Part shown: positions 15,001 to 50,749 of the stretch, piece by piece
Numbering within the stretch: position 1 is the stretch's first letter
Layout: every line of letters begins with the position of its first letter
NCBI GenBank assembly: GCA_010093995.1
Contig: ML992506.1
Span: 368,832-432,831, forward strand
DNA length: 64,000 nucleotides
Origin: Elsinoe ampelina
Taxonomy: Eukaryota
Direction of reading: 5' to 3'
Program-made: the position numbers and the translations under genes
Notes under the pieces: model-generated
Seen by the model: the letters and a program-made list of their open reading frames with translations, nothing else
Databases searched by the model: none
What the model was told of the DNA's origin: nothing

Positions 15001-16947
15001 TCAATCGTCAAACCCCTCCCACCCCTCCTCCTCCTCCCCACCTCCCGTCTGCATCCCCTTCCCCTCCACCCAAGCCTCTGCATTCCTCCTTCTCACCTCC
15101 CCAACCAACCTCTCCGTTTCCTCCTCGGCCCTTCTCTCCTCCTCCGTGAGCCCCTTCTTCCTCTCCCTCTCCCTCTTCTCCCCTCTCTTCTCCCTCCTCT
15201 CCTCCCTCGTCTTCTTCATCTCCTTCTGCCTTGTCCAAGCTCTCTCCTGCCTCCCCTCCTCCGTCTCCTTTTCCTGCCTCTTCCCCGCCCTTTCAGCGTC
15301 GGTCAGGGAGAGCTCTTCCAATCGACGCTTCTCCCGCTCTTTGTCCTTGTACTTCACCGCGGCTAGGAAATTAGCTCGCCCGAGCCGCCAGTCGCCTTTC
15401 CAATTCTTGGATTCAGGCATGCGCGGGAGACGGAGGAGACCCCAGCCTTCGGCGAGCGAGGCCCAGTCTGCGTCGCGGAGGTCGAAGATGGATTTTGCGG
15501 CGTGTTTGCCGTAGCTGCGGACCCAGGAGACGAAGGCGCGTTGGGCTCTGTCGTGGGTGGCGCGGTCGCGGGCGACGAGGGTGCGGATGTGGGTGGTGGT
15601 GGCAGCGGCTTCTTCTGCGGAGGGCAGGGGGAGGGGGTAGGCTGTGGCGGGGGTGCCGCGGAGGCGGAGGAATTCGATGTAGCCCTTTTCTTGTTCTTGG
15701 GGTTCGAGGAAGACTATGGCGGTGCCTCGACGTCCGGCGCGACCGGCGCGGCCGCAGCGGTGGACAAAGGTTTTGGGGTCGGATGGTGGATCGAGTTGGA
15801 GGACAAGATCGACTTGGGGGATGTCAAGACCGCGGGCGGCGACATCGGTTGTAAGCAGAAGAGTTGGGGTTGATGAGGAAGTGAAGGCAGTAAAGTTACG
15901 GGCTCGAACGGCGGGTGGAAGCTTGCCGTGAAGAGGGATAAGATTGTAGGGAGTTGAGGATAGAAGAGCTGGGAGAACAATAGACCAGTAGTCTACACTG
16001 TGGCAGGTCGATAGATAGATAAGGGTTTTCAGTGGCGGAGGTGAGATTGAGTTGAGGAGATGTAGCAAGGTGGTGATCTTGTGAGAGGCGGGTGTGGTCA
16101 AATATGTGATGTTAAGGGCCGAGGGAGTCTTTTGCTCGCCTGTCTTGGACCGAACTCGGACTACAACTTTGACAGGATTACGAAGCCCAACACGGATGAG
16201 CTGGTCCAGAGCTTCAGACATGGAAGCTGAGAAGAGTCCAGTTCGTCTCTGTTTAGGTAGTCGAGTCAGTATCTTGCGGAGTGTATCTGAGAAGCCTAGG
16301 TCGAGTAGCCGATCCGCCTCATCCAGGACTAGGGTAGAGAAGGTCGACTGCGAACAGTGGACATGTGATGACGAGAGTAGCTCAAGCAGGCGACCAGGTG
16401 TTGCGATGATGAAATTCGGAGAGTGGTTCAGGAAATGTGCGAGGTCTGCAGCAGGTGGTGTTGTGCCGCCAAGTAGGAGTTGAGGGATGATTTTGGGGGC
16501 GATGGAGGCGGGTTTGCTACTTGGTTCGTCTTCCTCCATAGTGTCCGTATCGTGGTCTTTCGGTAGATGTGCAGCTGAAGGTCCATGAAAAGCCAGTAAG
16601 GATATGAGTACTGAGTATATCTGCGAGGCTAGCTCGCGAGTTGGCGAGACTATGATGGCTCCAATGTGGTGGCGTTTAGGTTGGTCCTCTTGCCGTAATA
16701 GCTTTTCAACGACAGGCAAGAGGAATGAAAGAGTCTTCCCACTACCTGTGACGGCCTCTACGACGACATCTTTGTTGCCCATGAATAGTGGTATTGTGCT
16801 GGCTTGGACGGGCGTCATTTGGTGAAAGCCCATACTCGAAATGGCATCCAGAATCCATTCTGACAGTGAAGGTGTCAAGGCTTGCCATGACCGTTTCGAC
16901 AACTTCGGTGTGGTGTCTCCATTCGCTTCAGATGTATCCTTGGACAT
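15001..16947 (-). CDS. SPB4: DEAD-box rRNA helicase Spb4/DDX55
   Basis: Q motif [34 protein letters not shown] and [10 protein letters not shown], with a DDX55-type C-terminus (AFVSWVRSY). ATG at 16947. Confidence 0.95.
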
Positions 16948-17444
16948 CTTGCGCAGCGTGAAGGTCGACGAGGGCGTTGATGAGGTCAACTTTTTTCGAG
17001 AAGCTGGATGGGATTTTCGCGCGAAATCTGCCTGATTCGGTAGAGAATGCGAAAGTCACATGATCAGATCCCGCACTCGCCACGAAGCAACAACACCGCA
17101 ACGGAACTTGACAAGGTAGTTGACGATTTATGACAGGATATCTACAAGATGGAAAAACAAATGCATGGAGCACTGTGGCAGGAGGAAACTTTTGATTGTG
17201 TGGATGAATCTCTACTTCCAAGTCATTGACCATTTTGGAGGACCGAAGAAAACGCTATGCAGAGAAGTTGAATGCGGCGCCTTGACCATGACTGTTGTAC
17301 GACTAGCTGCCCTTCCCATCTGCGTCCCAGGATGTGCTGCAACACAAAAACACCAAAGTGCTGGCATGCACTGTGTGCATTTCTCATTCTTGTATCGTAG
17401 CCTCAGATTTTTGGACGCCAAGATGCTCTACCATCTGCCCAAGA

Positions 17445-19076
17445 TCATACCGAGCTCTCAATCTTTTGCTCGGCAGCGACTTGCTGAACTTGCTGTGGAG
17501 AAGTGGCCGGGGCAGCGTTTGGCGAGTATTTTGACCTCATTATGGTCTCGGCCCTAAATTTGAGCTCATCCCGGATGACTCTCTCGCTCCGGGTCTCCCA
17601 GACGGGATATGCCAGATTGGACAATGGGAACAGGACTCTGTTGTTGCGTGACCTGACAATGCTGTCGGTGTGAGGTTTCTTGCGGCTGGAGATGACACTC
17701 ATGTCGGCGGCGATCTCATGGCAGTACGAGTCGAGAGGCAGATCGTTTACACCATAGCCGAAAGGGTCTTCGATTTCGCTTCCAATGTGGACGAAAGATA
17801 GGATGATGTAGCTAGCGATGATAGTCGCAGGGATTGCCACCCACTTCAGAGCGGCCTCGAGCTGGAAGGGTAGCATGATGACGTAGATCCAGGTGATCTG
17901 AGCAATTGCAATAGAATATGCCAGAGGTAGAGGAGTGTGAGAGATTCGGTCACATCCTGTCAGGACATCATTCATGGCTGCCATGTTGTTGTAGGCGAGC
18001 GTTTGCTGCATAGGCACTTTCAGCTGGCCGTTTTCAATCATGTTGTCCACGTAAGACGCAAGATAGTTGAGGATCTCGAGAGGTAAGTTACCGACTGGTG
18101 CGCTGGCCTTCTTGAGCAGTTTCTGAGGGTTGGATTTGGCAAAGGAGATACCAAGATACTCGCCCGTTGACTTTAGCTTCGAAATGCGCGGGACGGTTGG
18201 CTTGTCTGTCTCGGTAGCTTCTTTGGCAAAGGTATCGATGTGGTCGACAAGTCCAGAGATGTCGTCATACATAGTGTATGGCTCGAAGCGGAGTTTGTGC
18301 TTGAGAGCGACAGAAAAGGCCACAATGTAGTTGAGAGCGGTACTGTAACAATGTCAGCTTAGGTGTCGAAGGATGAGAGTAGCAGGGGACAAACACTTTT
18401 GCTAGGAGATCCTGTCTGCCTAGGTCACCTTCACGCTCTATTCCATGGATGTAGATGACACGCCCGAGGTTGTGAGCCGCGAGGGTCAGCTGTGACCAAT
18501 ACTTTCGACCTTCATTGTATCTGATAGTGAGGTCAGCATGCAATATCGCTGCAATCATGATTTCGTAGATACCGTTCGTATGCAGTTGTGGAGCGGAAGC
18601 TCAGAGCCAAACCGACAACGAAACCAAGGACAGTGAGCAGGACGGTGTTCACGGCGACTATAGCATGTCAGCACTGAAGGGAGAGATTGCAGAAATCTTC
18701 TTACGTGAATAGACATATGCCGAGATGAGGCGGATAGCCGTCGCCCAAGCGCCCATAAACGTCAGGGGAATCAGCATTGCCGGCATTACGGATCCATGAA
18801 GACGAAGCCATGTTGGCCACTTGGAATGCTTGTTCAGATCGCGAGGTCCGGTCTGGGAAGGTTAGTGATGAAGGTGCCGATGTCACAGGTCGGCCATACA
18901 AAATAGTCCTCAATGTCGACCGAAGTCTGAGCGCGGCTGAATGCTCTGAATTCATGAGCATCGTCGGGAATAGAGTCGCGTGGCATTGTGGTTGAGGAAG
19001 GAGCTGAATCATTGAATCCTGTAGTGCGCTTCCTGACTGGGTCGGGAGAGTGATGAATGGCGCCGTCTTCCCCCAT
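17445..19076 (-). CDS. bestrophin-like UPF0187/YneE anion channel
   Basis: Spliced exons give GPRDLNKHSKWP..LHGSV, RSTTAYERYNEGRKYW, DRISHTPLPLAY and GSEIEDPFGYGVNDLPLD. At least 4 short GT-AG introns. Confidence 0.88.
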
Positions 19077-21776: not shown

Positions 21777-21946
21777 GCACAAAAGCAACAATACTGAGCA
21801 TAGGACAAATCCGACCGAGGAACTGGAACTTTCGATCACTCCTTTAATGATAATGACCATGATTTAGTGATGAGTCACGCAGCAAAAACACTCGAATACA
21901 TGTTACATTTGCATGGGTATCATTGATTTCTAGAACGTCATCGTCA

Positions 21947-24900
21947 TCACTCGTCGTCTTCACTCTCATCAACTTGTGCCGCCTGCTTCTTTCTCGCAGA
22001 CGCCTTCCTCATCTTCCTGCCCTTCGGCCGTGTCTCGGCAAAATCCTCGTCGCCATCTTCACCCTCAGTCGCAGTAGCAGCAGCAGACTTCCTCTTCCTC
22101 CCCCTCTTCGGCTTCTCCTCCTCAACCTCCTTTTCCACCACCTCCTCACCCTCATCCTCTCCCCCTTCTCCCCCCGCATCATCCCCCCTCCTCTTCCTCC
22201 TCGCCCTAGCAGCCATCCTCCCCAACGCCCCACCCAACCTCTTACTCCCCCCCTCCACCCTCTTCCTCGGCTCATACGCCCCGGCCCCCGTCCCCCCCGC
22301 GAAAAACTTCGTGATGTTACTCTGCGTCCCCTCCTGCTGCCTCCGATTCATATCCCTGATCACGGGCACCAAAACCTCGTCCGTCCTCTCCTGACTCCAC
22401 CCGATGGTCGCCATGAGGAAACCCCTCAACGCATCCAGATCCGGCACGCCCCACTGGAACGGACTCGGGTCGCTATCGACTTCGGGCCGGAGGTAAGCCG
22501 CCTCGACGCGGGGGTCGGGGAAGCCGACGGGGAGGAACAACTTGGCCGCGTTCTTGCGGAATTTGCGCCGGAAGGGAATCGCGAGGTCGGTTTCCTTCTT
22601 CACGCGACCTTCTTGGACGCCGGTCCACCAGTCGCGGAAGGACGAGAGGGAGTCGAATTCGCCGAGGATTTCGAGGGCAGTGACGGGCCCGATGCCGGGG
22701 ACGCCTTCGGTGTAGTCGCTGCCCAAGAGCTGGGCGATGCCGATGAGTTTGTCGCGCGTGAGGTCGAATTCCTTTTCGAGGTCGGACAGGAGGTAGCATT
22801 CGACGAATTTGGCTTGGTTGAACATGTTTTTGTAGATGCGGGTGCCGCCGAAGAGGAAGCAATCCGAGTCGTCGGTGACAATGCCGTCGACGAGGCCGAG
22901 GTGGACGAGTTCGGCGCATTGGGCTTCGGCTTCCATGGGGGCGGTGATGTAGGGAAGACCGAAGAGGCGGAGGAGTTGTTGGCATTCGGTGATCATGATT
23001 TGGGTGACTTCGTCTGCGTCGCGGCGGTCCTTCTTCTGTTGGGTGCGGAGTTGTTTGAGTTCCCGTTCGTAGTCGGCGATGTTTTGGGCTTGAGTCTTTT
23101 GGTTGAGCTCGGAGGCGAAACGAGCGTGTTCTTGTGCTTCGATCTCGAGTTGGCGCATGAGGTCTTCATCTTCGCTGTCAGTGAGGAGGCCGAAGTCTTC
23201 ATCTTCCTCAGCTGGAGCAGACTGAGCGGCGAGGCCAGAAGCGCCGTTGATGCTTGCTTCGGTGTTGGCGATTTGAGCAGATAGATCCGCAGCCTGCTCA
23301 GCAGCTGGATTCGGAGCAGTAGGTATTGAGACGTCCTCAAAGTCGGGTGAAGCGGATCGAGACGATACTTGCTCAGCGAGCTGATTTTGGGGGCTTGCGG
23401 CGGCGTTGTCTATAGCTTTCGAAACAGGCCGAGCTTCGTGAACGCTGTCAGACCATTCTATGTCCTCGTCATCTTCAGCTTCTCGTGATCCGGCAGGACC
23501 GTTCTCAGCGACTTGAAAACCCAGTCGACGATTCTCTGGTGGAGCGGCCATGGCTGGATCGTGAATGATCGAGGGCATCGCATCGTCCGGAGGCGGCGCA
23601 ATCGCTGGGGGCTCAATCCGGACGCTCTCAGCAAGGTCACCCATGGTGACATCTGGATTGTCGACGTCTGCGTCCTTGTTCTCATTTCCATTCGTCTTGC
23701 CGTCCACGCTGGGCTCTTCGTCCTCCTCGTCAATGACGAGCACCTCTCGCTGCTTGCCTTGCGTGTCCTCGTCGTCCAGATCGATGATCTCATTCGTCTC
23801 TGCTCGCTTGAGAACGCTCGGCTGATCGAATTGGAACTGCTGGTCGTCCCTGTACTGTTTTGCCTTTTCACGGTCTTCTCGTTCGATAGCTTCTTGCCGC
23901 TTGATCTCCTCGTCCGGATTGCCCTCGAACCAAGGAGGTAATGGTCGTGCTTCATCTTTCTTGTCGCCAACTTTCTCAAAACCTCCAGCAGTCTTCTCTT
24001 CTATTTTTTGAAGCTTCTTCCCAAACAGAGAATTACCTAAATCAAGCTTCTCGAATGGTAGAGGTCCACTCGATTTGGGCTTTGGCTTGTTCAGCTCGGC
24101 GACAGATGCTTGCACCTTTGAGGCTCGCTTCTGGTCTGCAGTCTGCTTAGCAGCCTGGTCTAGATTGTCGTGCTTCGGGCTGTGCGAGCCATTTTGCTGT
24201 TCATCTGCTTCGTCTTCGCTGTCGCTCTCGGCTTGGAACACGGATGCCTTGGGCGCTCTGTTCGCTCGTGCGTTTACCTGGCGAGCGATTGCAAGTCCAG
24301 AGCTACCAGCTGTTCCCTTGAACGAGGGTGCATCCTCAACTCTCTTTTGTTGAAAGACACCAAGGTTGTTGCCATCCTCGTCCGGATCAGCTGTGGACTC
24401 TTCGCTTTCTCCATCCTTCTGTAGCGACATGGCGATCGCCCTTTTGAGTTCTTCGTCTTCATCAACGTCCATCTCGCCGTTCTCTTCAACAGCCTCCTCT
24501 TCTGATGACTCCTCTACATCTTCATCTGCCACGAACAGCGATTCGGGATCTTTCGGTTGCGTCGCAGATTGTTGTTTCTTCGGTCGCGAAGAGCGTGCTT
24601 TTCGAGGTCTTCGAGATCCATTGTTCGCTCGCCTTTGTCGACCAACGAAGTTCTGTACTGGATCATTTGCTTGTCCATGCACAGGTCTCGGTAACCTGTT
24701 CAATCCTTCGATCGGCACATCTTCAAAGTCCTCCTCGCTTTGCTCTTGGTCATCCTCCTCCTCACGCTTGATCCTCTCACCCAACTCATCCACATCAATA
24801 GGCTTATCCTGCCGACCCTCATCTCTGCCCTCAACCACACCCAGTGCCCATCCTCCTTCCACACCATCATTCCTGACCAGCACGTACTCCCTCCCCTTCT

Positions 24901-25804
24901 CGCCTGCCACTCTCCCAGTCCCATTGATACCCCACATCCCATCATCGTTCATGCCATTAATGTTCATCAGCCTCTGCGTCAATTCATTCCTCTCTGCCAC
25001 TCTCTCGATCTGAAACCTCGAAAAGTCCATCCTGTTCGGGAACATCCTATCCAACTGCTCCTTACTATACCCCATCCGCAACCTACTCCTCAACCTCGCC
25101 GCATTCAAGATATTATACCGATCGCTCGCCGGCAAACTCGTAAAGAACGGGCTATCAAAATCAATCTTACTGAAATCATACACATTGATATCCTCCCCCG
25201 TATCAAACTGCCTCGCGTATGCCTCCAGTTCCTCCAAACTCATGATGCGCGGATCATTCGGCGCCCCCATCTCCTGCATACTCGACTCCAGCTCGGGCAA
25301 ATGATACTGGTCCTTCTTCCGGAACTTGCGGTTCTGCACCCGCTCTTTCTGCGTCATGTGCACTTCATCGGCGTACACCAGTCCTTCATCAGGCACCTCC
25401 TCCTCTTCGACCCTCTGATCCTGTCTCTTGCGCTGCTTCTCCTCCTCCTCGGCGGCACGTTGCATCTGCAGCGCCAACAACTTCCCCGCCGTACGCACCG
25501 CGTCTTCCTTCCGACCCTCCCGTCGTCGCTTCCTGGCAGTGATGGTGGCGCGTTTCAGCGCCGGTGCGCCGCCGTCGAAGACAAAGACCGGCTGGATGCC
25601 GACGAAGAGGAGTTTGCATATTCGGCGGAAGAAGCCCACGACGTGGCTGTTGCGGAGGGCGTTGCCTTCTTTATCGCGGACGGCTTTGAGGAATTGGTAG
25701 ATCCAGATCGAGGCGTCAACTGCGAGTCGCTTTTTATTTAGCGTTTCGAGTTTGGTGGGACGAGCGCAGGGGGAGACGACGGTCCAGAGGCCGGTGACAC
25801 CCAT
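21947..25804 (-). CDS. RAD2: XPG/Rad2 nucleotide-excision-repair endonuclease
   Basis: XPG-N (MGVTGLW, AVDASIW, VFVFDG) and XPG-I (APMEAEAQC, TDDSD, LLGSDYT.G) domains separated by a long spacer with a UIM-like EELKRAIAMSL. Confidence 0.97.
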   Translation of the reverse strand: MGVTGLWTVVSPCARPTKLETLNKKRLAVDASIWIYQFLKAVRDKEGNALRNSHVVGFFRRICKLLFVGIQPVFVFDGGAPALKRATITARKRRREGRKEDAVRTAGKLLALQMQRAAEEEEKQRKRQDQRVEEEEVPDEGLVYADEVHMTQKERVQNRKFRKKDQYHLPELESSMQEMGAPNDPRIMSLEELEAYARQFDTGEDINVYDFSKIDFDSPFFTSLPASDRYNILNAARLRSRLRMGYSKEQLDRMFPNRMDFSRFQIERVAERNELTQRLMNINGMNDDGMWGINGTGRVAGEKGREYVLVRNDGVEGGWALGVVEGRDEGRQDKPIDVDELGERIKREEEDDQEQSEEDFEDVPIEGLNRLPRPVHGQANDPVQNFVGRQRRANNGSRRPRKARSSRPKKQQSATQPKDPESLFVADEDVEESSEEEAVEENGEMDVDEDEELKRAIAMSLQKDGESEESTADPDEDGNNLGVFQQKRVEDAPSFKGTAGSSGLAIARQVNARANRAPKASVFQAESDSEDEADEQQNGSHSPKHDNLDQAAKQTADQKRASKVQASVAELNKPKPKSSGPLPFEKLDLGNSLFGKKLQKIEEKTAGGFEKVGDKKDEARPLPPWFEGNPDEEIKRQEAIEREDREKAKQYRDDQQFQFDQPSVLKRAETNEIIDLDDEDTQGKQREVLVIDEEDEEPSVDGKTNGNENKDADVDNPDVTMGDLAESVRIEPPAIAPPPDDAMPSIIHDPAMAAPPENRRLGFQVAENGPAGSREAEDDEDIEWSDSVHEARPVSKAIDNAAASPQNQLAEQVSSRSASPDFEDVSIPTAPNPAAEQAADLSAQIANTEASINGASGLAAQSAPAEEDEDFGLLTDSEDEDLMRQLEIEAQEHARFASELNQKTQAQNIADYERELKQLRTQQKKDRRDADEVTQIMITECQQLLRLFGLPYITAPMEAEAQCAELVHLGLVDGIVTDDSDCFLFGGTRIYKNMFNQAKFVECYLLSDLEKEFDLTRDKLIGIAQLLGSDYTEGVPGIGPVTALEILGEFDSLSSFRDWWTGVQEGRVKKETDLAIPFRRKFRKNAAKLFLPVGFPDPRVEAAYLRPEVDSDPSPFQWGVPDLDALRGFLMATIGWSQERTDEVLVPVIRDMNRRQQEGTQSNITKFFAGGTGAGAYEPRKRVEGGSKRLGGALGRMAARARRKRRGDDAGGEGGEDEGEEVVEKEVEEEKPKRGRKRKSAAATATEGEDGDEDFAETRPKGRKMRKASARKKQAAQVDESEDDE

Positions 25805-26020
25805 GATGGCGGATACGGGTGTAGGGGCATGGTATGGGGTTGAGATGAGACAGGTGGATGATCTGGTGAGGGATGTTGAGGCGGCCGCGGAGGTTCGAAG
25901 CTCACTACGTCACGAAGCGCGAGATCACGTGAGGTCAATTAAAGATTTACTTCGTGGACTGTCCAATGCTCTCAATATCTATATCATGGGTATCATGCAC
26001 TTCAAAGCCATTCATCAGGC

Positions 26021-31271: not shown

Positions 31272-31578
31272 AGCAAGCCCCGGAACGCGTTGCTGAACGG
31301 TGTCGTCGAGAGTGTAGAGAACAATCGCGATAGTACCCTGCAGATGGTCAAGACGAGAGCAGTCATTCATGTTCATATTGCTGGGACGACAAGAGCGGGA
31401 GGGGAAACGGAGGACAAATGGCTTAGGTTATTAATATTCTGTATACTGTGTATACCCGCATGCATGAATCCTGTCCTGTAGTCATGATCACATTACCCCA
31501 ACCCCGTCTCCAGATCCCCCTTTCTACCAACCCAATCCAACAACGAACACCTACATCCCCTCACCCTGCCCCACCACA

Positions 31579-33964: not shown

Positions 33965-35316
33965 GGTGGGCAGAGTCGCGCTGGCTAAATCGATGTAAGA
34001 GGTAGAAAAGCGGACGATCCATAATTGGAAAGTAGTGCGGGATGAAGAGAAGTCACAGCGACGACGACATCGACGGTGAAATAACCTTGACCTACCTCGA
34101 AAACCGCATTAGTGAAGATGTATGCTCATCCAAAGACCATCTGAGCTGTTCCTGCATGAATGAGGTCCAGTCTCTACGGATCATTGGTTTCGCCGAATGC
34201 CTCGTGGAATGCGACAGGTAGACAAGATCTCTACTACCGCCGACCAGCACTTTTACATATCAAGCAAGTCTCTCTAGCCATTATCGATTACTATCAGAGC
34301 TCGTTCGATCAGGTTAACCGTCGACGATGATTAGTCTGAACTGCAGGTCTTGTAGGATCGTTCGCACAAGACGTGCTCTGCAACAACAAGATCACTGAGC
34401 AACACCTGTGTGGTCGTCATGCTTATCGAACGAGGCGCTCTGTGTTAGCGAGACGATTCTTCTTGCACGCCGTCACGACCCAAGATGCACTGCCGTATGA
34501 TCATCGCCGACAAGACGGACGGATATCTCTGCACTAGAGAGCAAACTACCAGCTCATGATTACTTCAGCAACATGGACTATCGATCGACCATGTCCATGA
34601 ATCTCGTTGGCGCTTATGACCTGACTTGCAGATATGATTCAGATTGGAGTCGGTAGGTAGAGAGCTACAAGGATGTTCCCAACATGAGACAGCATCGATG
34701 CAGACTACAGGCGACCAACACGTCGATCATACAGGAGATGCGGCTCCTGCATGGACACTATGGTTCCCACCGGACCTGTCTTGGCCGCAGCATGTCAGGT
34801 TCACGTCACATCTTGATGAGGATCAACAAAGCAGTGATAAACAGGCTCACTCATCTTCAATCAAGCCAAGCCATGGTGGACCTTGCAGGATAGCTTGAGT
34901 CCGCCTCCACCACCTCCACGTAACCTTGGCAGCGCCAGCAGCGCGTTTCATCTTTCCTGATCCCTGGTCTTTCTGTGACCAGCCAATGTACGGCGACTCG
35001 TCTTGCTCAGCCAAAAGCTCGTTCACTTGTTGAAATCGTCGAGAAACATCCATGAACTCTCCACTTTTCGCAGACCGTGATCCATCAATCCTGTGCTTTG
35101 ACAAGCACGAGTCTGCTCTGTTTCACGTACAGCTTCAACAAAGAGTAAGCGAATAGTCTTGGGCAAGTCCTGTCTCTGTATAAATCACTGTCCCTCTCCA
35201 TTCCCTTCTCCATCCCTCAAGAGCTGCGCTCCCAACACGATCAATAACTTCTTTCGTTCACTTTCAAGTCATTCCTTTCACCTCCACTCCAATCAACTAC
35301 CAGAAGACCACCAACC

Positions 35317-36118
35317 ATGCATCCAACCCTCCTCATCCTCCTGGCTACAGCCGTCACCGCCTCTCCCACCCATCGCCACATCCGCCGCGCCTTCTCCTTC
35401 AACATCCCCTCCTCCACCGGCGTCGTCGACTACGCCGCCCCACAACAAATCACCGGCACCTTCGACGGCGGCCTCAAGACCTACGGCCGCAGCAACGTCG
35501 ACTGCTCCGGACAATCCGAAGGCGGCGAGGACGCCACCGTCTTCATCCTCGCCAGCGGCGCCACCCTCAAGAACGCCATCATCGGCGAAAACCAAGCCGA
35601 AGGCGTCTACTGCGAAGGCAGCTGCACAATCGAGAGTACATCCCCGTCCCCAATCCCCCCTGCCACTCCTTCCCCTCTCCCCGTCCAGCACTAACCCTCC
35701 CCTCCCAGACGTCTGGTGGACCAAAGTCTGCGAAGACGCCCTCTCGGCCAAAGGCGACGGCAACGTCCTCGTGCGCGGCGGCGGCGCGCGCGGCGCCTCG
35801 GACAAAGTGATCCAACACAACGGCTTCGGCACCGTGACGCTGGACGGGTTCAAAGTGCAGGACTTTGGCGCCTTGTACCGTTCGTGCGGCAACTGTGACG
35901 GCAACGGGGAGGCGAGGAATGTTGTGCTGCGGAACGTGCAGGCGAGCGGCGGGGATAGGTTGGTGGGGATTAATACGAACTTTGGGGATAAGGCGACGAT
36001 TACTGGGACGTGTGCGACGGATGTTGAGGAGGTGTGTTTGGCGTATGAGGGGACGACGGGTGGGGGGGAGCCGACGGAGATTGGGAGTTGTGCGAATTCC
36101 ACGTTGCCGGCTTGTTAG
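35317..36118 (+). CDS. secreted pectate lyase, polysaccharide lyase family 3
   Basis: Signal peptide, [39 protein letters not shown] and LYRSCGNC. Intron at 35636-35708. Confidence 0.95.
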
Positions 36119-36503
36119 AGGGGGATGGAATGGGGATGATGTCGTGTTAGGTAATGTGGACGTGGAGGATAGTCACTCCTTTGGCATAGCGGTGGTGAGC
36201 TTCGCTGGGCTGGATCCGGCGGCTTGGTTTGGTCGTGTGTAGTTGTCAATGCATTTTGCACGGCCGATGTTACTCCTTACTCCTACCAGACGGTGACGTG
36301 GCGCTCGTTTCATTTGGTACAAGGTTCACTCGGGGGTCGGCAGATGTACGGATGCGTTGCCAGTGTAGTCAAGTATCAAGGCTGTTCCGTAGTAGGCTGG
36401 GCTTCTCGACAATGTGCCATTCCCAAACATATAACCGTGTTGAAACCCTTGTCATTCGCATCGCTGCATGTACAATCATGATTCGTAACCCCAAGTACCA
36501 CGA

Positions 36504-39425
36504 TCAAACAGCCGCACTGCTATCCAACTCGCTGGAAAGCTTCGCGAGATCCTTCTCGTACGCCACGGCCAACTCTCTCAACACCCATCCAATCCTCGGC
36601 GTCACTGTAATAAATTAGCACACATCTCACACACCAGAAGAGTTGACCACTCACCTCCCCAAACCCAGGTATCATCATAAAAGCTCGCCCACAACCTCGC
36701 CATCTCCCCAGCCATACTCACGACCCTCTTCCCCCCCTCCAAATCCACACAAGCATCCCTCAACAACCTCCTCAACTTATCCACCATCACCGCCTCCTCC
36801 TCCTCCAACCCCCCTCCCACCCCCCTCTCACTCCTCATCCCCACCTGCTCCAACTTATGCGCCCACTTGGTAAACAACAACACCGTATCCCACCCAGCGA
36901 TCGCATGCTCAATACTCCACGTCAACGCCGCCGTCTTCTGCGTGAGCAACATGCCCGCCTTGATCGGGGTGCAGAACCCCTCGAACACGGTCCCCATGAC
37001 CTTATTCCAGTACGAGCCCCGCGACTGCGGCGCGCAGACGTAGTCCTCGATCATGCGGCCGACCAGCTTCCCGTCCGCGCTGAGGAGGACGACGCGGTTG
37101 AGCGAGCCCATGCCGGTGAGGGAGCGGGCGTAGGCGATGCGCAGGAGGGCCGCGCAGTTGAACAGGAGAGGTCCGTCGTAGTCGCTCCAGGTGGTCTCGC
37201 CTTCCGAGTTGGAGCGGGTGATCATGGTTCTGCACCGCGAGAGGCTGTTCTCGAGGTGCCGGAAGGAGCGCACGCGGATGTAGTCGTAGCCGAAGGTGGC
37301 GCTGGAGGGGTCGGGGACCGAGGAGATGACGGTGGCGAGCGTTTTGCCTTCTTCGTAGAGGTGCACGCATTGGATCCCGTTCCACATCTGGACGGAGATG
37401 GCGTGCATGGCGATCGTGGCGATGAGGGGGGACCAGTCGGTGAAGAGGGAGCCGTTGGCTGCGGTTTCGCCGTGCATGAGTTGGACGACGGCGTCGCGCA
37501 TGGTGAAGCGTGGGCGGGGTTTGCGGACGACCATGCGGAGGCGCCATTGGTCGCGGGTTGGGGCGTTCCAGAGGGCTTCGTCGTCGGGCATGTCGACTTC
37601 ACCGTCTTGGAGGATGGAGAGAGCGGGTGGGATGCCGTAGGTGATGGTAAGGAGATTGGAGAGGACAAAGGTGGCGTAAAGGATCCGTTTGGAGGATTCT
37701 AGCTCGATCCAGTCATGCCAGTTTTGACTGTCGGAGGCAGTTTGTCGTTGATGGGAGAGAGCTGCGGCACGGAAACGATAATCCATGGTCAGTTGTGGGA
37801 GGAGATCGAGGCCTTTACGGACTGCTTTAGGATCGCCACTGAAAGTTGAGAAGAAGATGATCAGATGCTGTGTCTGTGCCACCCATAGAGGATGGTAGTC
37901 AACATTTGAGATGCTGCTAGATTTGGGCTTGACCCAGCCTAGATTCATCTTCAAAGCTTGGTTGGCCAGAGTGCGTTCTAGTGCTTTCGAAGCTCGATCG
38001 AAGAGATCACCGGCGATATTGCGTTCCAGCCGATAAAGAGATCCAATAGCACACATAGCCAACAGTAGAGGAGAAGGACATTTGTTCACCTTGAATGTTC
38101 GAAGATGCAGGAAAGGCATATGGACATGACAGCAATCCAGATACGCCCTCAGACACTTTTCCAATATGACCTCGGATGGTAATTCTGCGTTATGGCCTGG
38201 ACCCAGACGTGTAGCCAAATCATGTATCAACGTCGAACGAGTCTGCGGCGTGATTCGTATGGGAGGTGCCTTTGCTGAAGGATGTTTCTGAATATTAGGA
38301 AGTGATGCCTCCATCTGATTTGTTGATGTGGTTTCGATGGAGTCTCTCCGCGTTCGATCCGTCGATGTTGTTGATTGCGCGGGGCGTGTTTCCAACGTTT
38401 GAGTCCGTACAGATGGGGGAGCTTTTACGTGTGATTGATTGTCGACCGGCAATGGTGACGGTGTGAAGACTAGTGCTTCATGGGATCCTCCCATTGGTGT
38501 TTGACTTGCCATCGACTGTGCCATGACGTCCTGCTGTATGCTTGGTAGCATATCGAATATGTCCATACCATCGAAATTGAGATTTGCAAGACCCGAATCG
38601 TCAAAGGCATCTGTATGAAGAAAGTCGAAGCTGGTGTCATCCTCTTGTATATTAGATGTCGATTGTGGCGCTATCGTGGGTTGCTGTGTGGTCGTCATTG
38701 TTGGAGCAGGCATGGCATTGATCTCCTTGATTTCAGCTGCCACATTGTGCTCGTCCATCTCGTTGAACGCATCGATTCCGCTGAGTGTCATATTCGGGGC
38801 TTCTTGATCATTGGTTTCGAAAAAGTCTGCCACATTCGAAGACTCAGGGCTAGGGAAAACATCTGTGACTAGAGTACCCTTATGGCTCCCGGCGAAAGAG
38901 CCTCTCCGCGAACCAGCATCGGACGCTGCTGCTCTACTTGTCTTGCGGCGTTCTTGTAGACAGTCAGCTGGTTTGTAAAGCTTGGATATGATGTGTCCAC
39001 TCACTGGCTGGCTTCTCTCCATCGCCACTGGCTGGCGGACTCGGTTGCCCCGCCTCTGCCTGCAATGCTTGCTCATCGGCATGCAGTGTCCTCTCGTGCC
39101 GTACAACTAGATCTCTGTGTTTCGATTACGGACTGCGCGCGGGACCAGGGTTCAACAGACTCACTTGCGAGCATATCCTCGTGAACAGAAGCGACAGCTA
39201 TAAGGGCGTTCTTGGGTGTCTAGGTCGTGATTAGAAGATTTCGACAGCATGATCACTAGACCCAGCAACGAGCAAAGGAAGGTCAGGCATACGGATTCTC
39301 TCGTGACGAATGCGGTGTTCACTCCGCTTGAAAGCTCTCGAACAGATCTTGCAGACATGAGACCTCTCTTGAGAATCATCAGTGGGGGAGAGTGCGGAGA
39401 CTTCGGCGTCTGCTGCCATGATCAT
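36504..39425 (-). CDS. C2H2 zinc-finger plus Fungal_trans domain transcription factor
   Basis: CKICSRAFKRSEH..RHERIH TQERPYSCRFC..RHERTLH, HVHMPFLH and WIELESSKR. Four introns inferred (e.g. 38953-39004); the last exon is VTPRIGWVL. Confidence 0.9.
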
Positions 39426-39998
39426 GTTCGCCGAGATGTCGTTACGTGACCCTTGGAGGTGGTATGGTATAGAATTGAGAAGCAGAAGGGAACAAAGCTC
39501 CAAAATCAACTCCCAAGAATGACATGAGACATGACCAACGTGCGGTGCTCTCCATACTTTAGCCCTGAACGCCGCGTGCTTGACTCTAGGTCAACTCGTT
39601 TTCGCCGGTTGACCTGACAGAGCACAAGGAGGGGACCCCGGGATGACTGAGCCGAGCCCTCATCCTCCGCCTTTCTCCGCCAACTGGGGGGCTAGAAGGA
39701 CCAATAGGCGATTCAGAGTTTGCCATTTGAGACTGGTCGTGGTTGAAAACGAGTTTTTAGCTCGTGCAGCCAGATCACGGCAAACGCCTTGAACAAAGCT
39801 CCGGCGGTACCGATGGCCAAGGAGGATTGATGGGGAGAGAGACACTCCCCACACTCGTTTTCGGCATCAAATCTCTTTCTCCAAACGGGCCTGATCCGTT
39901 TCCCCACTCGAGGGAGCAGGACCAGAATGAAGGATATTGTCGGTGAAAGGAATTAAGCATTCATGGTGAGTCGTCAAGCAGTACTGGTCATTGCTAGT

Positions 39999-46522: not shown

Positions 46523-47137
46523 CAGCTCCGGGCGGGTAGAGACCCGTCGCCGAGCTAGCATCCCTCGCCAAATCTGCTATACACCTATACACGCCTCGTT
46601 GGCTGTCGCCCTTTTCTTCTGTCTCGCTGCGCGAGCTTTGACGTCTCAGTGTGCTGCATCGCTCTTGGGAATGCTTGATTCGCTGCGCATCCGGACATAG
46701 TGTACATAGATCACAGTCGAATTCTCAGATCATCACAAAGTAGATCCTCCAATCTCCTCTACAACGATTGACGTCAGATTCGATGACCTGTCTCCGACCA
46801 GGGTCTTTTGTAAGCCCTCAGATCGATGTGAGCGACTTGTGCGGTTTTCGAGGGAGATTGCCCAAAACGGCTTGGCGTGTTTTGTCCCGAAGGTCGACCT
46901 CCAGGCTCTCCGCAGAAACGACGCACCTTTTTCAAGCACAAGTCGCGCACACATCTGCTGGCTTCTATTGACATGTGGCGACCTTTGATAAGAACGTTCA
47001 GGCAAGTTCTGCTTGGTTCAGCTCTCTCCTACACATTTGTCAACGCGATATTCCTGCACTTGCTTTCTGAAACTTCACCACACTGACATTTAGACACTGA
47101 ACTGGTCATCCAAACGTTTCGCTTCATTTCAACCGCC

Positions 47138-50100
47138 ATGTCTGCAAGGGCCACAGGAACAACACATGATCATAGGCGTACTACCTTCCTAATATCCAAT
47201 CTCCACTGCCCATCATGTATTTCGAGTATCGACCTCGCTCTGGCTCAGCTCTCACCCCGCCCAGCACTAGTGTCACACTCGATCATCAACCATACACTTA
47301 CTATCGAGCATCGACTACCACTCGACATGATCAGCCAAATCCTGGTTGACAATGGCTACGAAATTGATTCCTTGGCTTCGGATGAAGATGGGATACTTCG
47401 ATCGTTCTCCGAATGTGAGACGATAGCCTCCAAATCAGATACGCAAATGGACCAGACAGCGAGACTTCGTCACCAGGCAAATTGCAAGCAATGTCAATTG
47501 GAGATGCACAACATGGGAGATGACCGATCGCTTGCCGAGTCTCCATTAGTTGTCGTCGATTCACTGGACACGACGGAACTTGTACAGGCTACCATTTCCA
47601 TTGACGGCATGACATGTGCTTCATGCGTAGGGCATGTAGATAGGACCTTGAAGGAGAAACCTTGGATCAACAGCGTCGACATCAACTTACTGTCTGGCTC
47701 TGCAAAGGTAGTCCTGCATGGACGTCATCACCTTGATGAACTGATATCTGCCATCGAAGACGTCGGCTTCGACGCAGCAATTCAGGAGTCACAGAGCATT
47801 CGACATGGTCTTCCAAGAGAGGGCGCGACTTGTTCTGGCGGGGACGATGGCTCGACTAGAAGAAAAGTGGACATACACATTCTTGGCATCTACTGCCAGC
47901 ATTGCCCACCCAAGATCCAGCCCGTTCTCGAACCCTTCGTAACAGAATTTGGCCTCACCATTGAGCGCATGCCTACGGTCGAAAGCCCCATCTTACGCAT
48001 CACATATATCGCTCAGCCTCCTGTCTTCACCCTTCGCCGCATACTCGCAGCTATCACCTCCGCGGATCCAAACTTCAGCGCTACCATTGTTCGCCCAACG
48101 AGCATCGAAGAAAGAGCACGCATCATGCACGCCCGTGAGCAGCGAAACCTTCTGCGTCGGCTCATACTCTCTGGTATCGCAGTCATCCCCACCTTCATCA
48201 TCGGCATCGTCTTTATGAACTTGGTGGACGAGAATCAGCCTGGAAGAATGTACTTGATGGAGAAGCTGGTAGGAGTCTCGCGTGCCGAGTGGGCATTATT
48301 CATTCTCGCTACACCAGTATACTTCTTCGCCGCCGACATGTTCCACCGACGATCTATCAAGGAACTGCGAGTACTCTGGCAACCTCGAAGTCAAGTGCCA
48401 ATCTGGAAACGTTTCGTCCGGTTCGGGAGCATGAACACTTTGATCTCCTTTGGCACATCCATTGCCTACTTTTCGTCAATTGCGGAGCTCTCGGTGGCTG
48501 CGTCTCACAGTAAAGATCAGAACGCGGAAGTCACTACCTACTCGTACTTTGACAGTGCCGTCTTCCTCACTTTCTTTCTGCTCATTGGACGATTGATCGA
48601 GGCATATAGCAAGACCAAAGCTGGGGACGCTGTTGCTGCTCTCGGCAAGCTGCGTCCGGACGAGGCAGTGCTGGTCACTGATTCCGAGAACGGAACCACT
48701 GTCAACGTCGACCTGCTGGATGTAGGTGATCTGGTCAGAGTAACTCACGGCGGATCACCCCCTTGTGACGGTATTGTCACCACTGGCACGAGCACATTCA
48801 ACGAGTCGAGCCTGACAGGAGAGTCACGACCTGTCTCAAAAGCAATCGACGACCCAGTCTACTCCGGCACAGTCAACACAGGCAGCCCTGTGACGATCAA
48901 AATCACAGGAGCTGCAGGTACATCAATGCTGGACCAAATCATCGGCGCAGTAAGGGACGGTCAGACCAAACGAGCACCAGTCGAGCGTGTCGTCGACAGC
49001 TTGACCGCCTACTTCGTCCCTGCCGTCACACTTGTAGCCATCACTACCTGGATCGTCTGGCTGAGTCTCGGCTTGAGTGGAATGCTGCCAGAGTCCTATC
49101 GGGATAATCCGACTGGAGGCTGGCCCTTCTGGTCTCTGCAATTCGCCATCGCCGTCTTTGTCATCGCTTGTCCTTGCGGTATCGGACTGGCCGCTCCCAC
49201 TGCGCTTTTCGTCGGAGGAGGTCTGGCTGCTAAGCATGGCATCCTTGTCAAAGGCGGCGGCGAAGCTTTCCAAGAAGCGAGTCGTCTCGACTGCGTTGTG
49301 TTTGACAAGACCGGCACTCTCACTATGGGTGGTGAGCCTCGTGTCGTCGACTTTGAGCTCATCCCTGGCGTAGTGGAGGAGTCTCTGCTTCTATCCGCCA
49401 TCCTGGCCATCGAGTCATCAACCACACACCCAATAGCCAAAGCTCTCGTCACGCTCTGCCGCGACCGAGCCGCAGAGCCCATCAGTCTCCAAGAGGTTGA
49501 AGAAATCCCCGGCCACGGCATGCGAGGCATCACCACCTCCTCCCCTCCCCTCGAGGTCCTCATCGGCAACGAATCCCTCCTCACCACGCACTCCATCCCT
49601 CTCTCCCCCTCCCACCGCTCCCTCCTCACAACCTGGTCCACAGCCGCCAAATCCCTCGTCCTCATCGCCGTCCGCCACCCCTCCCACCCCTACTCCCTCG
49701 CCGCACTAGCCTCCACCTCCGACCCCCTCCGCCCCGAAGCCCCCTCGGTCATCTCCGCCCTCCACGCCCTCAACATCACCACCTACCTGCTCACAGGGGA
49801 CAACCCCCTCACCGCCCACGCCGTCGCTGCCTCCCTCTCCATCCCCCCCGCCAACGTCATCGCCGCCGTCCTCCCCACGCAAAAAGCCGCCCACATCCGG
49901 GCCCTCCAACGCTCTCTCGCCCCCGCGGGTCGGCGCGCAGTGATCGCCATGGTAGGCGACGGAGTCAACGACGCCCCTTCGCTCGCGGCGGCGGACGTGG
50001 GCATCGCGATCGGCTCCGGGAGCGACGTGGCGATTTCCGCGGCGCATTTTGTCTTGTTGCGGAGTGACCTGGGGGCTTTGCTGACGTTGGTGCGGTTGAG

Positions 50101-50329
50101 CAGGAAGGTGTTTGACAGGGTGAGGTGGAATTTCGGGTGGGCTTTGGTTTATAACCTGTGCGCGTTGCCGGTCGCGGCGGGGGTGTTGTTCCCCGTGGTG
50201 CTGGGCGGGAGCCATGTGAGGTTGGATCCGGCGTGGGCGGCGGCGGCCATGGCGGGGAGTTCGGTGAGTGTGGTGGGGAGTAGTCTTTTGTTGAGGACGG
50301 GGTGGTGGGGGGTGGGGTCTAGGGGGTGA
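47138..50329 (+). CDS. P1B-type copper-exporting ATPase (CrpA/Crp1-type)
   Basis: HMA motifs LHCPSC, GMTCASC and IYCQHC; TGES, CPC, DKTGT, HP, TGDN and GDGVND; YN and MxxSS in the last TM helices. Confidence 0.95.
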   Translation: MSARATGTTHDHRRTTFLISNLHCPSCISSIDLALAQLSPRPALVSHSIINHTLTIEHRLPLDMISQILVDNGYEIDSLASDEDGILRSFSECETIASKSDTQMDQTARLRHQANCKQCQLEMHNMGDDRSLAESPLVVVDSLDTTELVQATISIDGMTCASCVGHVDRTLKEKPWINSVDINLLSGSAKVVLHGRHHLDELISAIEDVGFDAAIQESQSIRHGLPREGATCSGGDDGSTRRKVDIHILGIYCQHCPPKIQPVLEPFVTEFGLTIERMPTVESPILRITYIAQPPVFTLRRILAAITSADPNFSATIVRPTSIEERARIMHAREQRNLLRRLILSGIAVIPTFIIGIVFMNLVDENQPGRMYLMEKLVGVSRAEWALFILATPVYFFAADMFHRRSIKELRVLWQPRSQVPIWKRFVRFGSMNTLISFGTSIAYFSSIAELSVAASHSKDQNAEVTTYSYFDSAVFLTFFLLIGRLIEAYSKTKAGDAVAALGKLRPDEAVLVTDSENGTTVNVDLLDVGDLVRVTHGGSPPCDGIVTTGTSTFNESSLTGESRPVSKAIDDPVYSGTVNTGSPVTIKITGAAGTSMLDQIIGAVRDGQTKRAPVERVVDSLTAYFVPAVTLVAITTWIVWLSLGLSGMLPESYRDNPTGGWPFWSLQFAIAVFVIACPCGIGLAAPTALFVGGGLAAKHGILVKGGGEAFQEASRLDCVVFDKTGTLTMGGEPRVVDFELIPGVVEESLLLSAILAIESSTTHPIAKALVTLCRDRAAEPISLQEVEEIPGHGMRGITTSSPPLEVLIGNESLLTTHSIPLSPSHRSLLTTWSTAAKSLVLIAVRHPSHPYSLAALASTSDPLRPEAPSVISALHALNITTYLLTGDNPLTAHAVAASLSIPPANVIAAVLPTQKAAHIRALQRSLAPAGRRAVIAMVGDGVNDAPSLAAADVGIAIGSGSDVAISAAHFVLLRSDLGALLTLVRLSRKVFDRVRWNFGWALVYNLCALPVAAGVLFPVVLGGSHVRLDPAWAAAAMAGSSVSVVGSSLLLRTGWWGVGSRG

Positions 50330-50749
50330 TGGGCGGGGATGCGGGGTGGGGATGGGGGAGGATGCTGATGAGGTTCAATGCTGGAGTCTAGAGAGAGCGA
50401 GATGCGACGGATTTAATAAGACACGTGAATGAACTTGCAAGTTGACCTGAACTCAGAGGCAGAACGAAGGAAAGCAGATTGTGCGACCTCATGATAACTC
50501 AAGTCACCGTTCTATCGACATGTCGGCGAAGGCAGGGAAGGTGAGGCGGGGACGGAATTCATCAAGTTCCATGGTCAAATCTAGGCAACCATGATATCCC
50601 AAGCCTCGCACCATTGAAGCACCGATCGAGTTGAGCAGGCGAGCGATAAGCAGCCATGCCACAATTGAATCGGTGCCTAACAGCCTCATATCTAGACCGG
50701 ACTGTTCGCTTCATGCTCTCGCGCGCTCAGTCCAAGTCCGACTCGCTCG

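Follow-up and report, generated by a model that had tools for sequence, protein, structure and literature searches.

Fungal genes with opposite GC skews at their 5' and 3' ends were described by McLean & Tirosh (2011, BMC Genomics, PMC3315797), who found that the coding strand carries a C bias from the 5' end over most of the gene's length and a G bias in the final few hundred bases. This skew acts on fourfold sites as well as on amino-acid use, reaches into the UTRs and was seen in most fungi, the filamentous Ascomycota among them, in a data set that includes filamentous Dothideomycetes. The published pattern is an average gradient in which the C bias is strongest at the promoter, GC skew shows a negative correlation with GC content and AT skew is flat along genes; it is strong in Candida albicans but weak in both S. 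cerevisiae and S. pombe. Two hypotheses were offered there, 'mutational pressure' and an avoidance of C near 3' ends, linked to Pol II flow under CTP scarcity. Fujimori et al. (2005, PMC555766) report that plants and fungi have an excess of C over G around their transcription start sites, and leading/lagging-strand skew at bacterial replication origins is credited to Lobry and to Frank & Lobry (1999) where PMC3315797 cites them.

We analysed 64,000 nt of the grapevine-pathogenic fungus Elsinoe ampelina (GCA_010093995.1, contig ML992506.1, 368,832-432,831 of the forward strand), a stretch referred to throughout as the window. A sliding GC-skew profile of its + strand shows seven GC-rich islands of about 1 kb in which C-rich sequence turns G-rich, for example from a skew of -0.63 (15001-15400) to +0.44 (15801-16200) and from -0.53 (49401-49800) to +0.50 (50001-50400). 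When located as cumulative-skew minima, the switch points are 15406, 22454, 25533, 31883, 35770, 37076 and 49924, each no more than 60 bp from the figure given in an earlier note on this DNA, whose seven islands are thereby confirmed. GC content is 0.60-0.71 inside the islands against 0.52 in the whole window, and the CpG observed/expected ratio at island centres reaches up to 1.2-1.4. The island average consists of plateau-like, roughly symmetric blocks extending about 450 bp either side of the switch, with C at 0.45-0.49 and G at 0.09-0.21 on the left, and G at 0.41-0.44 and C at 0.17-0.26 on the right. The islands are as follows, with blocks in coding-strand order.

15004..16400, - strand: island 1, 3' part of an SPB4-like DEAD-box helicase (ORF 15001-17055); C block 16400 to 15407, G block 15406 to 15004; centre 15406, 405 nt ahead of the stop codon; C3 0.75, then G3 0.80.
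21950..23200, - strand: island 2, 3' part of RAD2/XPG (CDS 25804 to 21950); C block 23200 to 22455, G block 22454 to 21950; centre 507 nt ahead of the stop codon; C3 0.73, then G3 0.72.
24700..25950, - strand: island 3, 5' part of RAD2 (ATG at 25804); C block from the 5' leader (about 25900) to 25534, G block 25533 to 24700; centre 271 nt past the ATG.
31480..32700, - strand: island 4, 3' part of a Zn2Cys6 transcription factor (ORF 31579-33459; intron 33460-33514); centre 31883, 304 nt ahead of the stop codon, with the G block running about 100 nt beyond it; C3 0.78, then G3 0.63, GC3 0.92 at the centre.
35190..36300, + strand: island 5, spanning the entire pectate lyase (PL3) transcription unit (CDS 35317-35635 + 35709-36115, stop codon 36116-36118; intron 35636-35708, GT..AG, joint 35635/35709 from RNA-derived contigs); C block 35190-35770, G block 35771 to about 36260, 3'UTR included.
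36420..37850, - strand: island 6, 3' part of a gene that the earlier note called C2H2, a label taken over as given (exons ...39106 to 36655 and 36604 to 36507, stop codon 36506-36504; last intron 36605-36654, joint 36604/36655 from RNA-derived contigs); C block 37850 to 37077, G block 37076 to about 36420; centre 523 nt (mRNA distance) ahead of the stop codon; C3 0.73, then G3 0.78, GC3 0.98 at the centre.
49430..50420, + strand: island 7, 3' part of a copper P-type ATPase (ORF 47087-50329); C block 49430-49924, G block 49925 to about 50400; centre 405 nt ahead of the stop codon; C3 0.87, then G3 0.70.

The earlier list lacks two weaker switches, of like polarity, that lie at about 450 and at 31056. 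The island sequences are matched by contigs from three other samples (organisms A and B), and the contig record X3, which matches 22309-25825 in the RAD2 region, has 0 differences from the window. The contigs of other samples lack introns and are therefore RNA-derived; given these matches, the islands are no assembly artefact.

Read along the coding strand, every one of the seven islands runs from C-rich to G-rich. The centre lies 304-523 nt ahead of the stop codon in six of them, the seventh being that past the RAD2 ATG, and the G blocks reach as far as the stop codon or, at most, about 150 nt beyond it. A switch from C-rich to G-rich is unchanged by reverse complementation and so looks identical for genes on either strand; the argument of the earlier note, that the polarity ignores gene strand and so cannot be explained by transcription, therefore fails. 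The opposite, G-to-C switch falls at gene boundaries in the window, where a strict scan returned only 14993 and 31488, both gene 3' ends. Shared orientation, stop-codon distances and the placing of G-to-C switches thus show that the skew pattern is anchored to the gene or transcription unit. Among the 20 window ORFs of at least 250 codons, six combine a GC4 of at least 0.70 (last 300 codons) with a strong switch and the remaining 14 show little switch; skew is higher in the last 100 codons in only 13 of the 20, some of which end at exon borders. In long genes the C bias peaks directly upstream of the 3' switch, not at the promoter: it is strongest about 2.6 kb from the ATG in RAD2, and in the ATPase about 4.4 kb downstream from base 45074, where the ORF taken here as its upstream exon (45074-46522) begins.

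A weaker form of both RAD2 switches occurs at matching positions in distant fungi. We compared 79 fungal metagenome loci, 55 of which had more than 700 residues mapped and were 45-57% identical to the window RAD2. Fourfold skew in the window gene (pooled values for the 55 orthologues in brackets) is -0.79 (-0.49) at residues 1-60, +0.37 to +0.87 (+0.15 to +0.19) at 121-240, about 0 (about 0) in the middle, -0.69 to -1.00 (-0.34 to -0.46) at 841-1080 and +0.71 to +0.83 (+0.24 to +0.28) at 1141-1260. Other long, non-RAD2 ORFs of the same loci behave alike: 73 of 101 have a fourfold skew that is higher over their final 100 codons than over codons 100-300 (Wilcoxon p = 1.6e-8). Across the 79 loci, 39 of 45 distinct C-to-G peaks fall inside ORFs, 29 of those 166-590 bp from the ORF stop, against only 4 of 20 G-to-C peaks; ORFs make up 0.58 of the bases.

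The skew is strongest at silent sites, and the bulk of the signal lies in third codon positions. Shuffling of synonymous codons inside each gene (1000 shuffles per gene), a control named in the earlier note, reached the observed C3-to-G3 switch in 0/1000 shuffles in each of SPB4, RAD2, Zn2Cys6, the ATPase and C2H2. Fourfold sites carry C at 0.69 and G at 0.09 in the C blocks, and G at 0.63, C at 0.19 and A at 0.05 in the G blocks. The skew is present in non-coding DNA as well: it is -0.68 in the PL3 leader, -0.76 in the PL3 intron, +0.47 in the PL3 3'UTR and +0.68 at 50330-50400 of the ATPase island and, for - strand genes but measured on the + strand, +0.65 in the RAD2 5' leader (25805-25900), -0.78 at 31480-31578 of the Zn2Cys6 island and -0.43 in the last C2H2 intron, while ten introns outside the islands are confined to +/-0.36. 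The extension into introns and UTRs reported earlier therefore holds, and the loss of skew at synonymous and non-coding sites that had been proposed as a counter-test was not seen. The peak of the signal at fourfold sites and its occurrence in introns and UTRs point to strand-asymmetric action on DNA or the primary transcript.

Third-position use of A and T reverses with the block, along with that of G and C. Codons for K/E/Q end in G in 47/177 cases (0.27) in C blocks against 0.55 outside the islands, and in A in 130/177; NNY codons end in C in 91/220 cases (0.41) in G blocks against 0.61 outside (all Fisher tests p < 1e-6). On the coding strand, G and T are avoided upstream of the switch in favour of C, or of A at sites that allow only purines; C and A are avoided downstream of it in favour of G, or of T at sites that allow only pyrimidines. 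This codon choice rules out both GC-biased conversion alone and translational selection, and our data support the view that selection on proteins or on translation is not the cause of the pattern.

Proteins are nonetheless affected. The earlier note had claimed that the skew bends the composition of the ATPase, and this is borne out for the C block, where the protein is shifted to C-rich codons: the amino-acid-implied skew at positions 1-2 is -0.35, whereas six non-Elsinoaceae orthologues range from -0.22 to +0.07, a comparison by which the shift is derived in Elsinoaceae. Among RAD2 amino-acid changes in the lineage of the window and E. batatas, C is gained 18.5 and lost 4.0 times in the C halves; G is weakly favoured in the G halves (gain 15.0, loss 11.5), a result close to the non-island figure of 30.0 vs 28.8.

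GC skew with R-loops is reportedly found at mammalian CpG-island promoters and 3' ends, in work by Ginno et al. from 2012/2013. Our islands are similarly short, GC-rich and CpG-rich, with a skew tied to the transcription unit and positive at 3' ends. Just downstream of the start, however, the non-template strand is G-rich in mammals and C-rich in the window. The pattern of Fujimori et al. (2005) is matched by the C-rich 5' end of the coding strand, in the PL3 leader and in the leader and first 90 codons of RAD2; the islands differ from it in their G-rich 3' block and in C-rich blocks far from known start sites. The closest match is with McLean & Tirosh, in the C-biased upstream part, the small G-biased 3' region running into the UTR and the effects on fourfold sites and amino acids. 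However, the islands are discrete plateau blocks of about 0.45 kb per side with a sharp switch, in only some genes; they are GC3-rich (0.8-0.98), whereas the published skew falls with GC content; their peak C bias adjoins the switch, not the promoter; third-position A/T flips with the block, whereas the published AT skew is flat; and RAD2 has a second switch near its ATG.

We consider it probable that the islands are unusually strong, GC-rich local cases of the known gene-anchored fungal skew, arising from transcription-coupled mutation or repair, the link to transcription being attributed from the position of the switches relative to genes. In line with the published 'mutational pressure' hypothesis, such a process would work in one way in the elongation zone and in another over the unit's last ~400 nt: the coding strand would be biased towards T>C and G>A transitions upstream and towards the complementary A>G and C>T transitions downstream, and a net surplus of A:T>G:C changes would push GC up. 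Candidate steps are exposure of the non-template strand, repair-patch synthesis on the transcribed strand and antisense transcription starting at the 3' end. Against this reading stand the departures from the published pattern listed above, the restriction of the switch to some genes and the weak favouring of G in the RAD2 G halves. Of the earlier proposal of a mutational or repair process at fixed points, the strand-asymmetric process stands (fourfold sites, introns, UTRs), whereas the points are set by the gene, as orientation and stop-codon distances indicate.

The plateau-like, roughly symmetric blocks suggest that a process centred on a point would also be suitable. Stable meiotic recombination hotspots, placed near gene ends by chromatin, might act in this way, with GC-biased conversion raising GC around the break and repair-synthesis errors giving the polarity: G:T mispairs in the new strand, + to the right of the break and - to the left, would leave C then G, as expected from the standard break-repair model. 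The GC3 peak indeed has symmetry about the centre, with values of 0.92-0.98 in two islands, and a reach of about 450 bp per side is a plausible tract length. Strand-asymmetric mutation reportedly surrounds double-strand breaks in yeast switching clusters (Roberts et al. in 2012) and human meiotic hotspots (Hinch et al. in 2023), and resembles the islands in its mirror-image, strand-coordinated base changes over about 1 kb around a fixed point. However, damage to resected 3' tails would, from 5'->3' resection, give G+T left and C+A right, the reverse of the islands. If GC-biased conversion acted alone, G-ending K/E/Q codons and C-ending NNY codons should both be commoner in C and G blocks alike, whereas each is below background in one (0.27 vs 0.55; 0.41 vs 0.61). 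The ties to stop codons and the RAD2 switch positions common to orthologues only 45-57% identical also argue against hotspots. Meiotic hotspots are well mapped in S. cerevisiae and S. pombe; C. albicans is not known to have conventional meiosis. Yet it is in the latter that the skew is strong and in the former two that it is weak (PMC3315797). Intragenic hotspots are reported in another Dothideomycete, Zymoseptoria (PMC5844332), whereas PMC8295512 calls the sexual stage of E. ampelina poorly understood. Hotspots at the switch points, a candidate of the earlier note, are thus possible but disfavoured: the symmetric peak and tract-like reach speak for them, codon choice, shared RAD2 positions and stop-codon anchoring against.

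Slightly more doubtful is a skew that is adaptive for transcription or the primary transcript, through C-avoidance near 3' ends (CTP scarcity, Pol II flow), as hypothesised in PMC3315797, or through RNA folding. All skewed non-coding pieces examined are probably transcribed (introns, leaders, 3'UTRs), and G blocks avoid C even at the price of T-ending codons. However, C-avoidance does not predict the equal avoidance of G upstream (fourfold G 0.09; A-ending K/E/Q 130/177), and altering the amino acids of conserved enzymes is a cost hard to justify. The folding signal is inconsistent: the ATPase island folds better than shuffles (z = -2.81, 0/20 as stable), the RAD2 3' island worse (z = +2.21, 20/20 as stable).

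The leading strand at bacterial origins carries more G than C, and the islands agree with this polarity in both components (C then G; A then T at third positions), as the earlier note had seen for G over C. Its suggestion that the switch points are bidirectional replication origins is nevertheless very unlikely, given seven switches in 35 kb (spacing 1.3-12.9 kb) and a skew that reaches only ~0.45 kb per side and is then gone, with no run to a terminus; bacterial skews span megabases, whereas these islands span hundreds of bases, are denser and lie inside genes, every centre being in coding sequence at a fixed distance from a stop or start codon, and the RAD2 positions recur in distant fungi. 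Long inverted repeats, foldback elements or assembly artefacts, which a C/A-rich arm followed by a G/T-rich arm of complementary composition might evoke, are refuted by the lack of long arms in the islands (only low-complexity complementary stretches of 14-38 nt, 71-93% complementary) and by the exact match of independent RNA-derived contigs, and the island regions encode conserved proteins.

To conclude, transcription-coupled mutation or repair is the reading we favour for these islands. Their base-composition pattern is one already described for fungal genes, and in Elsinoe ampelina it is extreme and GC-rich.

A composition profile combined with a left/right switch score resolved seven GC-rich islands in the window (GC 0.60-0.71, compared to 0.52 for the whole window), all of them C-rich and then G-rich along the + strand. 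Taking skew as (G-C)/(G+C), the minima of cumulative skew lie no more than 60 bp from the seven switch points that the earlier note had picked out.

Switch points of the seven islands, with the gene that carries each
15406, gene on the - strand: 3' end of SPB4, centre 405 nt from the stop codon
22454, gene on the - strand: 3' end of RAD2, centre 507 nt from the stop codon
25533, gene on the - strand: 5' end of RAD2, centre 271 nt 3' of the ATG
31883, gene on the - strand: 3' end of the Zn2Cys6 gene, centre 304 nt from the stop codon
35770, gene on the + strand: PL3 (pectate lyase), centre 348 nt from the stop codon; the island is the entire transcription unit
37076, gene on the - strand: 3' end of the C2H2 gene, centre 523 nt from the stop codon
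49924, gene on the + strand: 3' end of the copper P-type ATPase, centre 405 nt from the stop codon

The centres are spaced 1.3-12.9 kb apart, and the left/right switch score also picked up two weaker switches, at about 450 and 31056, with the same polarity. The mean profile of the seven islands resembles a plateau over about 450 bp to either side, and C and G each step by about 0.2 within 100 bp of the centre. No part of the window is richer in GC than the islands, the excess over the mean at the switch peaks being 0.107-0.157. The DNA itself is nuclear and belongs to an Elsinoe species (Dothideomycetes): RAD2 shares 90% protein identity with its E. batatas counterpart and 80% with that of E. 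fawcettii, and the copper ATPase shows 98% identity to a protein named for E. ampelina. The latter protein has 1823 residues and also contains copper-fist (PF00649) and acetyltransferase (PF00583, PF13508) domains (window 45074-50329); the public E. ampelina gene model may join the ATPase and upstream ORFs, 45074-46522 for example, into one. In the alignment, the E. batatas ATPase model (1736 residues) continues at its C-terminus into a long stretch of unrelated sequence, probably because the last intron was mis-called. Elsewhere in the window, a block of about 650 bp at 53120-53840 with 19-20% GC, TA/TTAA-rich and set within DNA of otherwise about 50% GC, has short inverted repeats at its borders, with ACGAGCGGTT near 53125-53150 and AACCGCTCGT near 53810-53830, and looks like a RIP-degraded small transposon or MITE.

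The signal is carried by third codon positions, where C3 of up to 0.87 is followed by G3 of up to 0.80 and GC3 reaches 0.98 at one centre. In each of SPB4, RAD2, Zn2Cys6, ATPase and C2H2, the observed C3-to-G3 switch exceeded all 1000 controls made by shuffling synonymous codons within the gene. Indeed, the skew also extends into introns and UTRs, as had been claimed from inspection: non-coding pieces of the islands are skewed in the same direction (absolute skew 0.43-0.78), with leaders at -0.68 and +0.65 and 3'UTR pieces at +0.47, +0.68 and -0.78 on the + strand; ten introns lying outside the islands do not exceed +/-0.36. Three other samples yielded contigs that match the islands, one of 3.5 kb spanning 22309-25825 with 0 differences. 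None of the listed sequencing runs is recorded as RNA; three nonetheless consist of spliced contigs, and since these skip introns they are RNA-derived. Their reproduction of the islands therefore shows that these are not an assembly artefact. Across three same-species runs (organisms A and B), PL3-paralogue contigs left aside, there is one well-supported difference in 20 kb. Within the low-complexity G block of the RAD2 tail, one high-depth contig from the same-species sample X3 has three extra nucleotides (GCA) after 22164; this may be an in-frame length polymorphism that separates isolates. Very deep RNA-derived contigs (287 in X3, 129-201 in X4, another same-species sample) align to 35378-35770, part of PL3, with many differences and then diverge into unlike sequence, which suggests a paralogous pectate lyase elsewhere in the genome that is much more highly expressed. 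A long inverted repeat or foldback element was considered for the islands and rejected, as the arms are not complementary and only low-complexity matches of 14-38 nt were found.

The earlier note had reasoned from the independence of the pattern from gene orientation. That argument is uninformative, because a C-then-G switch is its own reverse complement and hence looks identical whichever strand carries the gene. On the coding strand the orientation is the same in all seven islands, a C-rich upstream half (C block) being followed by a G-rich downstream half (G block). The G block ends at the stop codon in SPB4 and at the RAD2 3' end, and 45-150 nt past the stop in the ATPase, Zn2Cys6 and PL3 genes. 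The opposite, G-to-C switch sits at gene borders in the window, for example at about 36417, where PL3 and C2H2 converge, 3' end to 3' end. The pattern is seen in 13 of the 20 long ORFs of the window and takes its strong form in six. One RNA-derived X3 contig (30254-31697) extends from the + strand gene at 30249-31268 into the convergent Zn2Cys6 gene, covering the final ~120 nt of its coding sequence; the two transcripts either overlap at their 3' ends or were merged by an unstranded assembly.

A gene-anchored skew of this kind is already known. McLean and Tirosh (BMC Genomics 2011, PMC3315797) reported, for nearly all of the fungi in a survey that included filamentous Dothideomycetes, a coding strand biased to C at 5' ends and to G at 3' ends, a skew that acts on fourfold sites and amino-acid use and that is strong in Candida albicans and weak in two model yeasts. 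As candidate causes they named phase-specific transcription-coupled mutation or repair and adaptive C-avoidance, without choosing between them. The window islands belong to this kind and are an extreme local example of it: they share the orientation relative to the gene (7/7), the bias at fourfold sites, the reach into leaders and 3'UTRs (SPB4 and the RAD2 3' end excepted), the amino-acid shift, and the recurrence in many genes and species. They also depart from the published average. They consist of discrete, almost symmetric blocks, the strongest C bias of the long window genes adjoins the 3' switch rather than the promoter, and the strong form is confined to a subset of ORFs; furthermore, GC is high rather than low and third-position A/T use flips with the block, although these last two are correlates in the paper and not part of its definition. 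Together, these departures keep a point-centred process in play. Within the library searched, our literature searches (GC-rich bipolar islands, fungal hotspot skew, Elsinoe genome composition) returned no description of discrete GC3-rich switch islands, only PMC3315797 and PMC555766 being relevant.

A metagenome scan with a RAD2 alignment yielded 79 fungal loci totalling 0.96 Mb, of which 55 had more than 700 RAD2 residues mapped; some are near-duplicates, so the loci are not fully independent. Pooled fourfold skews along RAD2 show that the profile of the window is common to the orthologues, at the same positions but weaker.

Fourfold skew along RAD2 (residues: pooled skew of 55 orthologues; skew in the window)
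1-60: -0.49; -0.79
121-240: +0.15 to +0.19; +0.37 to +0.87
middle: about 0; about 0
841-1080: -0.34 to -0.46; -0.69 to -1.00
1141-1260: +0.24 to +0.28; +0.71 to +0.83

The same holds for other genes. After exclusion of ORFs overlapping RAD2, ORFs with N and duplicates, fourfold skew was higher in the last 100 codons than in codons 100-300 in 73 of 101 long ORFs from the metagenome fungal loci (Wilcoxon p = 1.6e-8), the pooled skew being +0.08 to +0.19 over the last 75 codons and about -0.2 upstream. In these loci 39 of 45 distinct C-to-G peaks fall inside ORFs, 29 of them at 166-590 bp from the ORF stop and nine being the RAD2 5' switch, compared to 4 of 20 G-to-C peaks. Around 42 of the 45 C-to-G peaks GC is above the mean of the locus (mean excess 0.064). 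In three loci, L006, L010 and L012, C-to-G peaks (e.g. L006:1722 and 21127) outscore all those of the window (0.69-0.78 versus <=0.62), and the strong peaks form closely spaced pairs about 0.8 kb apart; these may be the best loci in which to study the skew switch.

Codon choice within the islands is informative as to cause. At fourfold sites, C blocks have C 0.69 and G 0.09, and G blocks have G 0.63, C 0.19 and A 0.05. Codons for K, E and Q end in G in 47 of 177 cases (0.27) in C blocks, 0.86 in G blocks and 0.55 outside the islands, and NNY codons end in C at 0.87, 0.41 (91/220) and 0.61, respectively. Thus, upstream of the switch G is avoided even where A has to be used instead, and downstream of it C is avoided even where T has to be, which excludes GC-biased conversion as the sole cause; translational selection is likewise disfavoured by this codon choice. 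When the skew of introns and UTRs is added, the evidence points to transition biases that are complementary between the two strands, whereby the coding strand would gather T>C and G>A changes in the C block and A>G and C>T changes in the G block.

These biases reach the proteins. The change in ATPase composition described in the earlier note is borne out in the C block, where the amino-acid-implied skew at codon positions 1-2 is -0.35 in the window, -0.30 in E. batatas and -0.29 in Sphaceloma, compared to -0.22 to +0.07 in non-Elsinoaceae orthologues (Myriangium -0.06, with five further outgroups spanning that range), so the shift towards T/H/P/L/A is derived in Elsinoaceae. Polarised amino-acid changes in RAD2 give a clear signal in C blocks only (C gain 18.5, loss 4.0), that in the G halves being weak (G gain 15.0, loss 11.5). 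A relative of about 96% identity and partial coverage differs in the PL3 island from a window C at 6 of 11 differences in the left half and from a window G at 7 of 9 in the right half, counts that are too small, and partly confounded by paralogue contigs, to give the direction of substitution.

We consider it rather probable, as regards the kind of process and leaving the enzymatic step aside, that the skew reflects a transcription-unit-anchored, strand-asymmetric mutation or repair. A stronger proposal is that the islands are more than the tail of an average gradient, each marking a fixed site, ~400 nt inside the 3' end or ~270 nt inside the 5' end, at which the strand gathering deamination-type transitions changes; we regard this as doubtful. 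In one candidate version, sense Pol II would meet antisense Pol II started at the 3' nucleosome-free region, and the non-template strand in each case would acquire C/A through transcription-coupled repair patches on its transcribed partner. Were this proposal correct, zones of antisense transcription or transcription-coupled repair in fungi could be mapped from base composition alone, and the process would be able to rewrite nearly all silent sites and shift the amino acids of conserved enzymes.

The earlier note had itself proposed recombination hotspots or replication origins. Meiotic hotspots, acting through GC-biased conversion and repair-synthesis errors, fit the symmetry and the GC peak of the islands, but they would have to be placed by gene ends over very deep time, given the positions in the RAD2 orthologues. 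Strand-blind weak-to-strong enrichment would raise both G- and C-ending codons, contrary to the K/E/Q and NNY fractions, and if the damage is modelled in the simplest way, as deamination of resected tails, the polarity comes out reversed. That the skew is strong in Candida albicans and weak in the two model yeasts is likewise the opposite of what hotspots would lead one to expect. Hotspots are thus an unlikely source, and the islands are most likely not a hotspot signature. Adaptive explanations through transcript-level selection are, if anything, slightly less plausible, since they do not predict the upstream avoidance of G; RNA folding of two islands gave z-scores of -2.81 and +2.21, opposite in sign and hence evidence neither way. 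Two further ideas were rejected: cDNA-mediated 3' conversion from edited mRNA, since introns persist in the islands and the C block is left unexplained, and breaks at gene-end nucleosome-free regions with tail deamination, which account for the G block but not for a C peak situated 0.5-1 kb within long genes. Replication origins at the switch points are very improbable: origin skew runs over a whole replichore and origins lie tens of kb apart, which neither the spacing of the islands nor their reach of about 0.45 kb per side fits.

Islands of this type distort analyses of codon usage, GC3 and selection, and can pass for origins, hotspots or foreign DNA. As extreme loci with a clear codon signature, namely G-avoidance upstream and C-avoidance downstream, they are good test sites for the mutational versus the adaptive hypothesis. 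They illustrate the extent that a strand-asymmetric bias anchored to genes can reach in a filamentous fungus, with silent sites brought near saturation and the amino acids of a conserved copper pump shifted.
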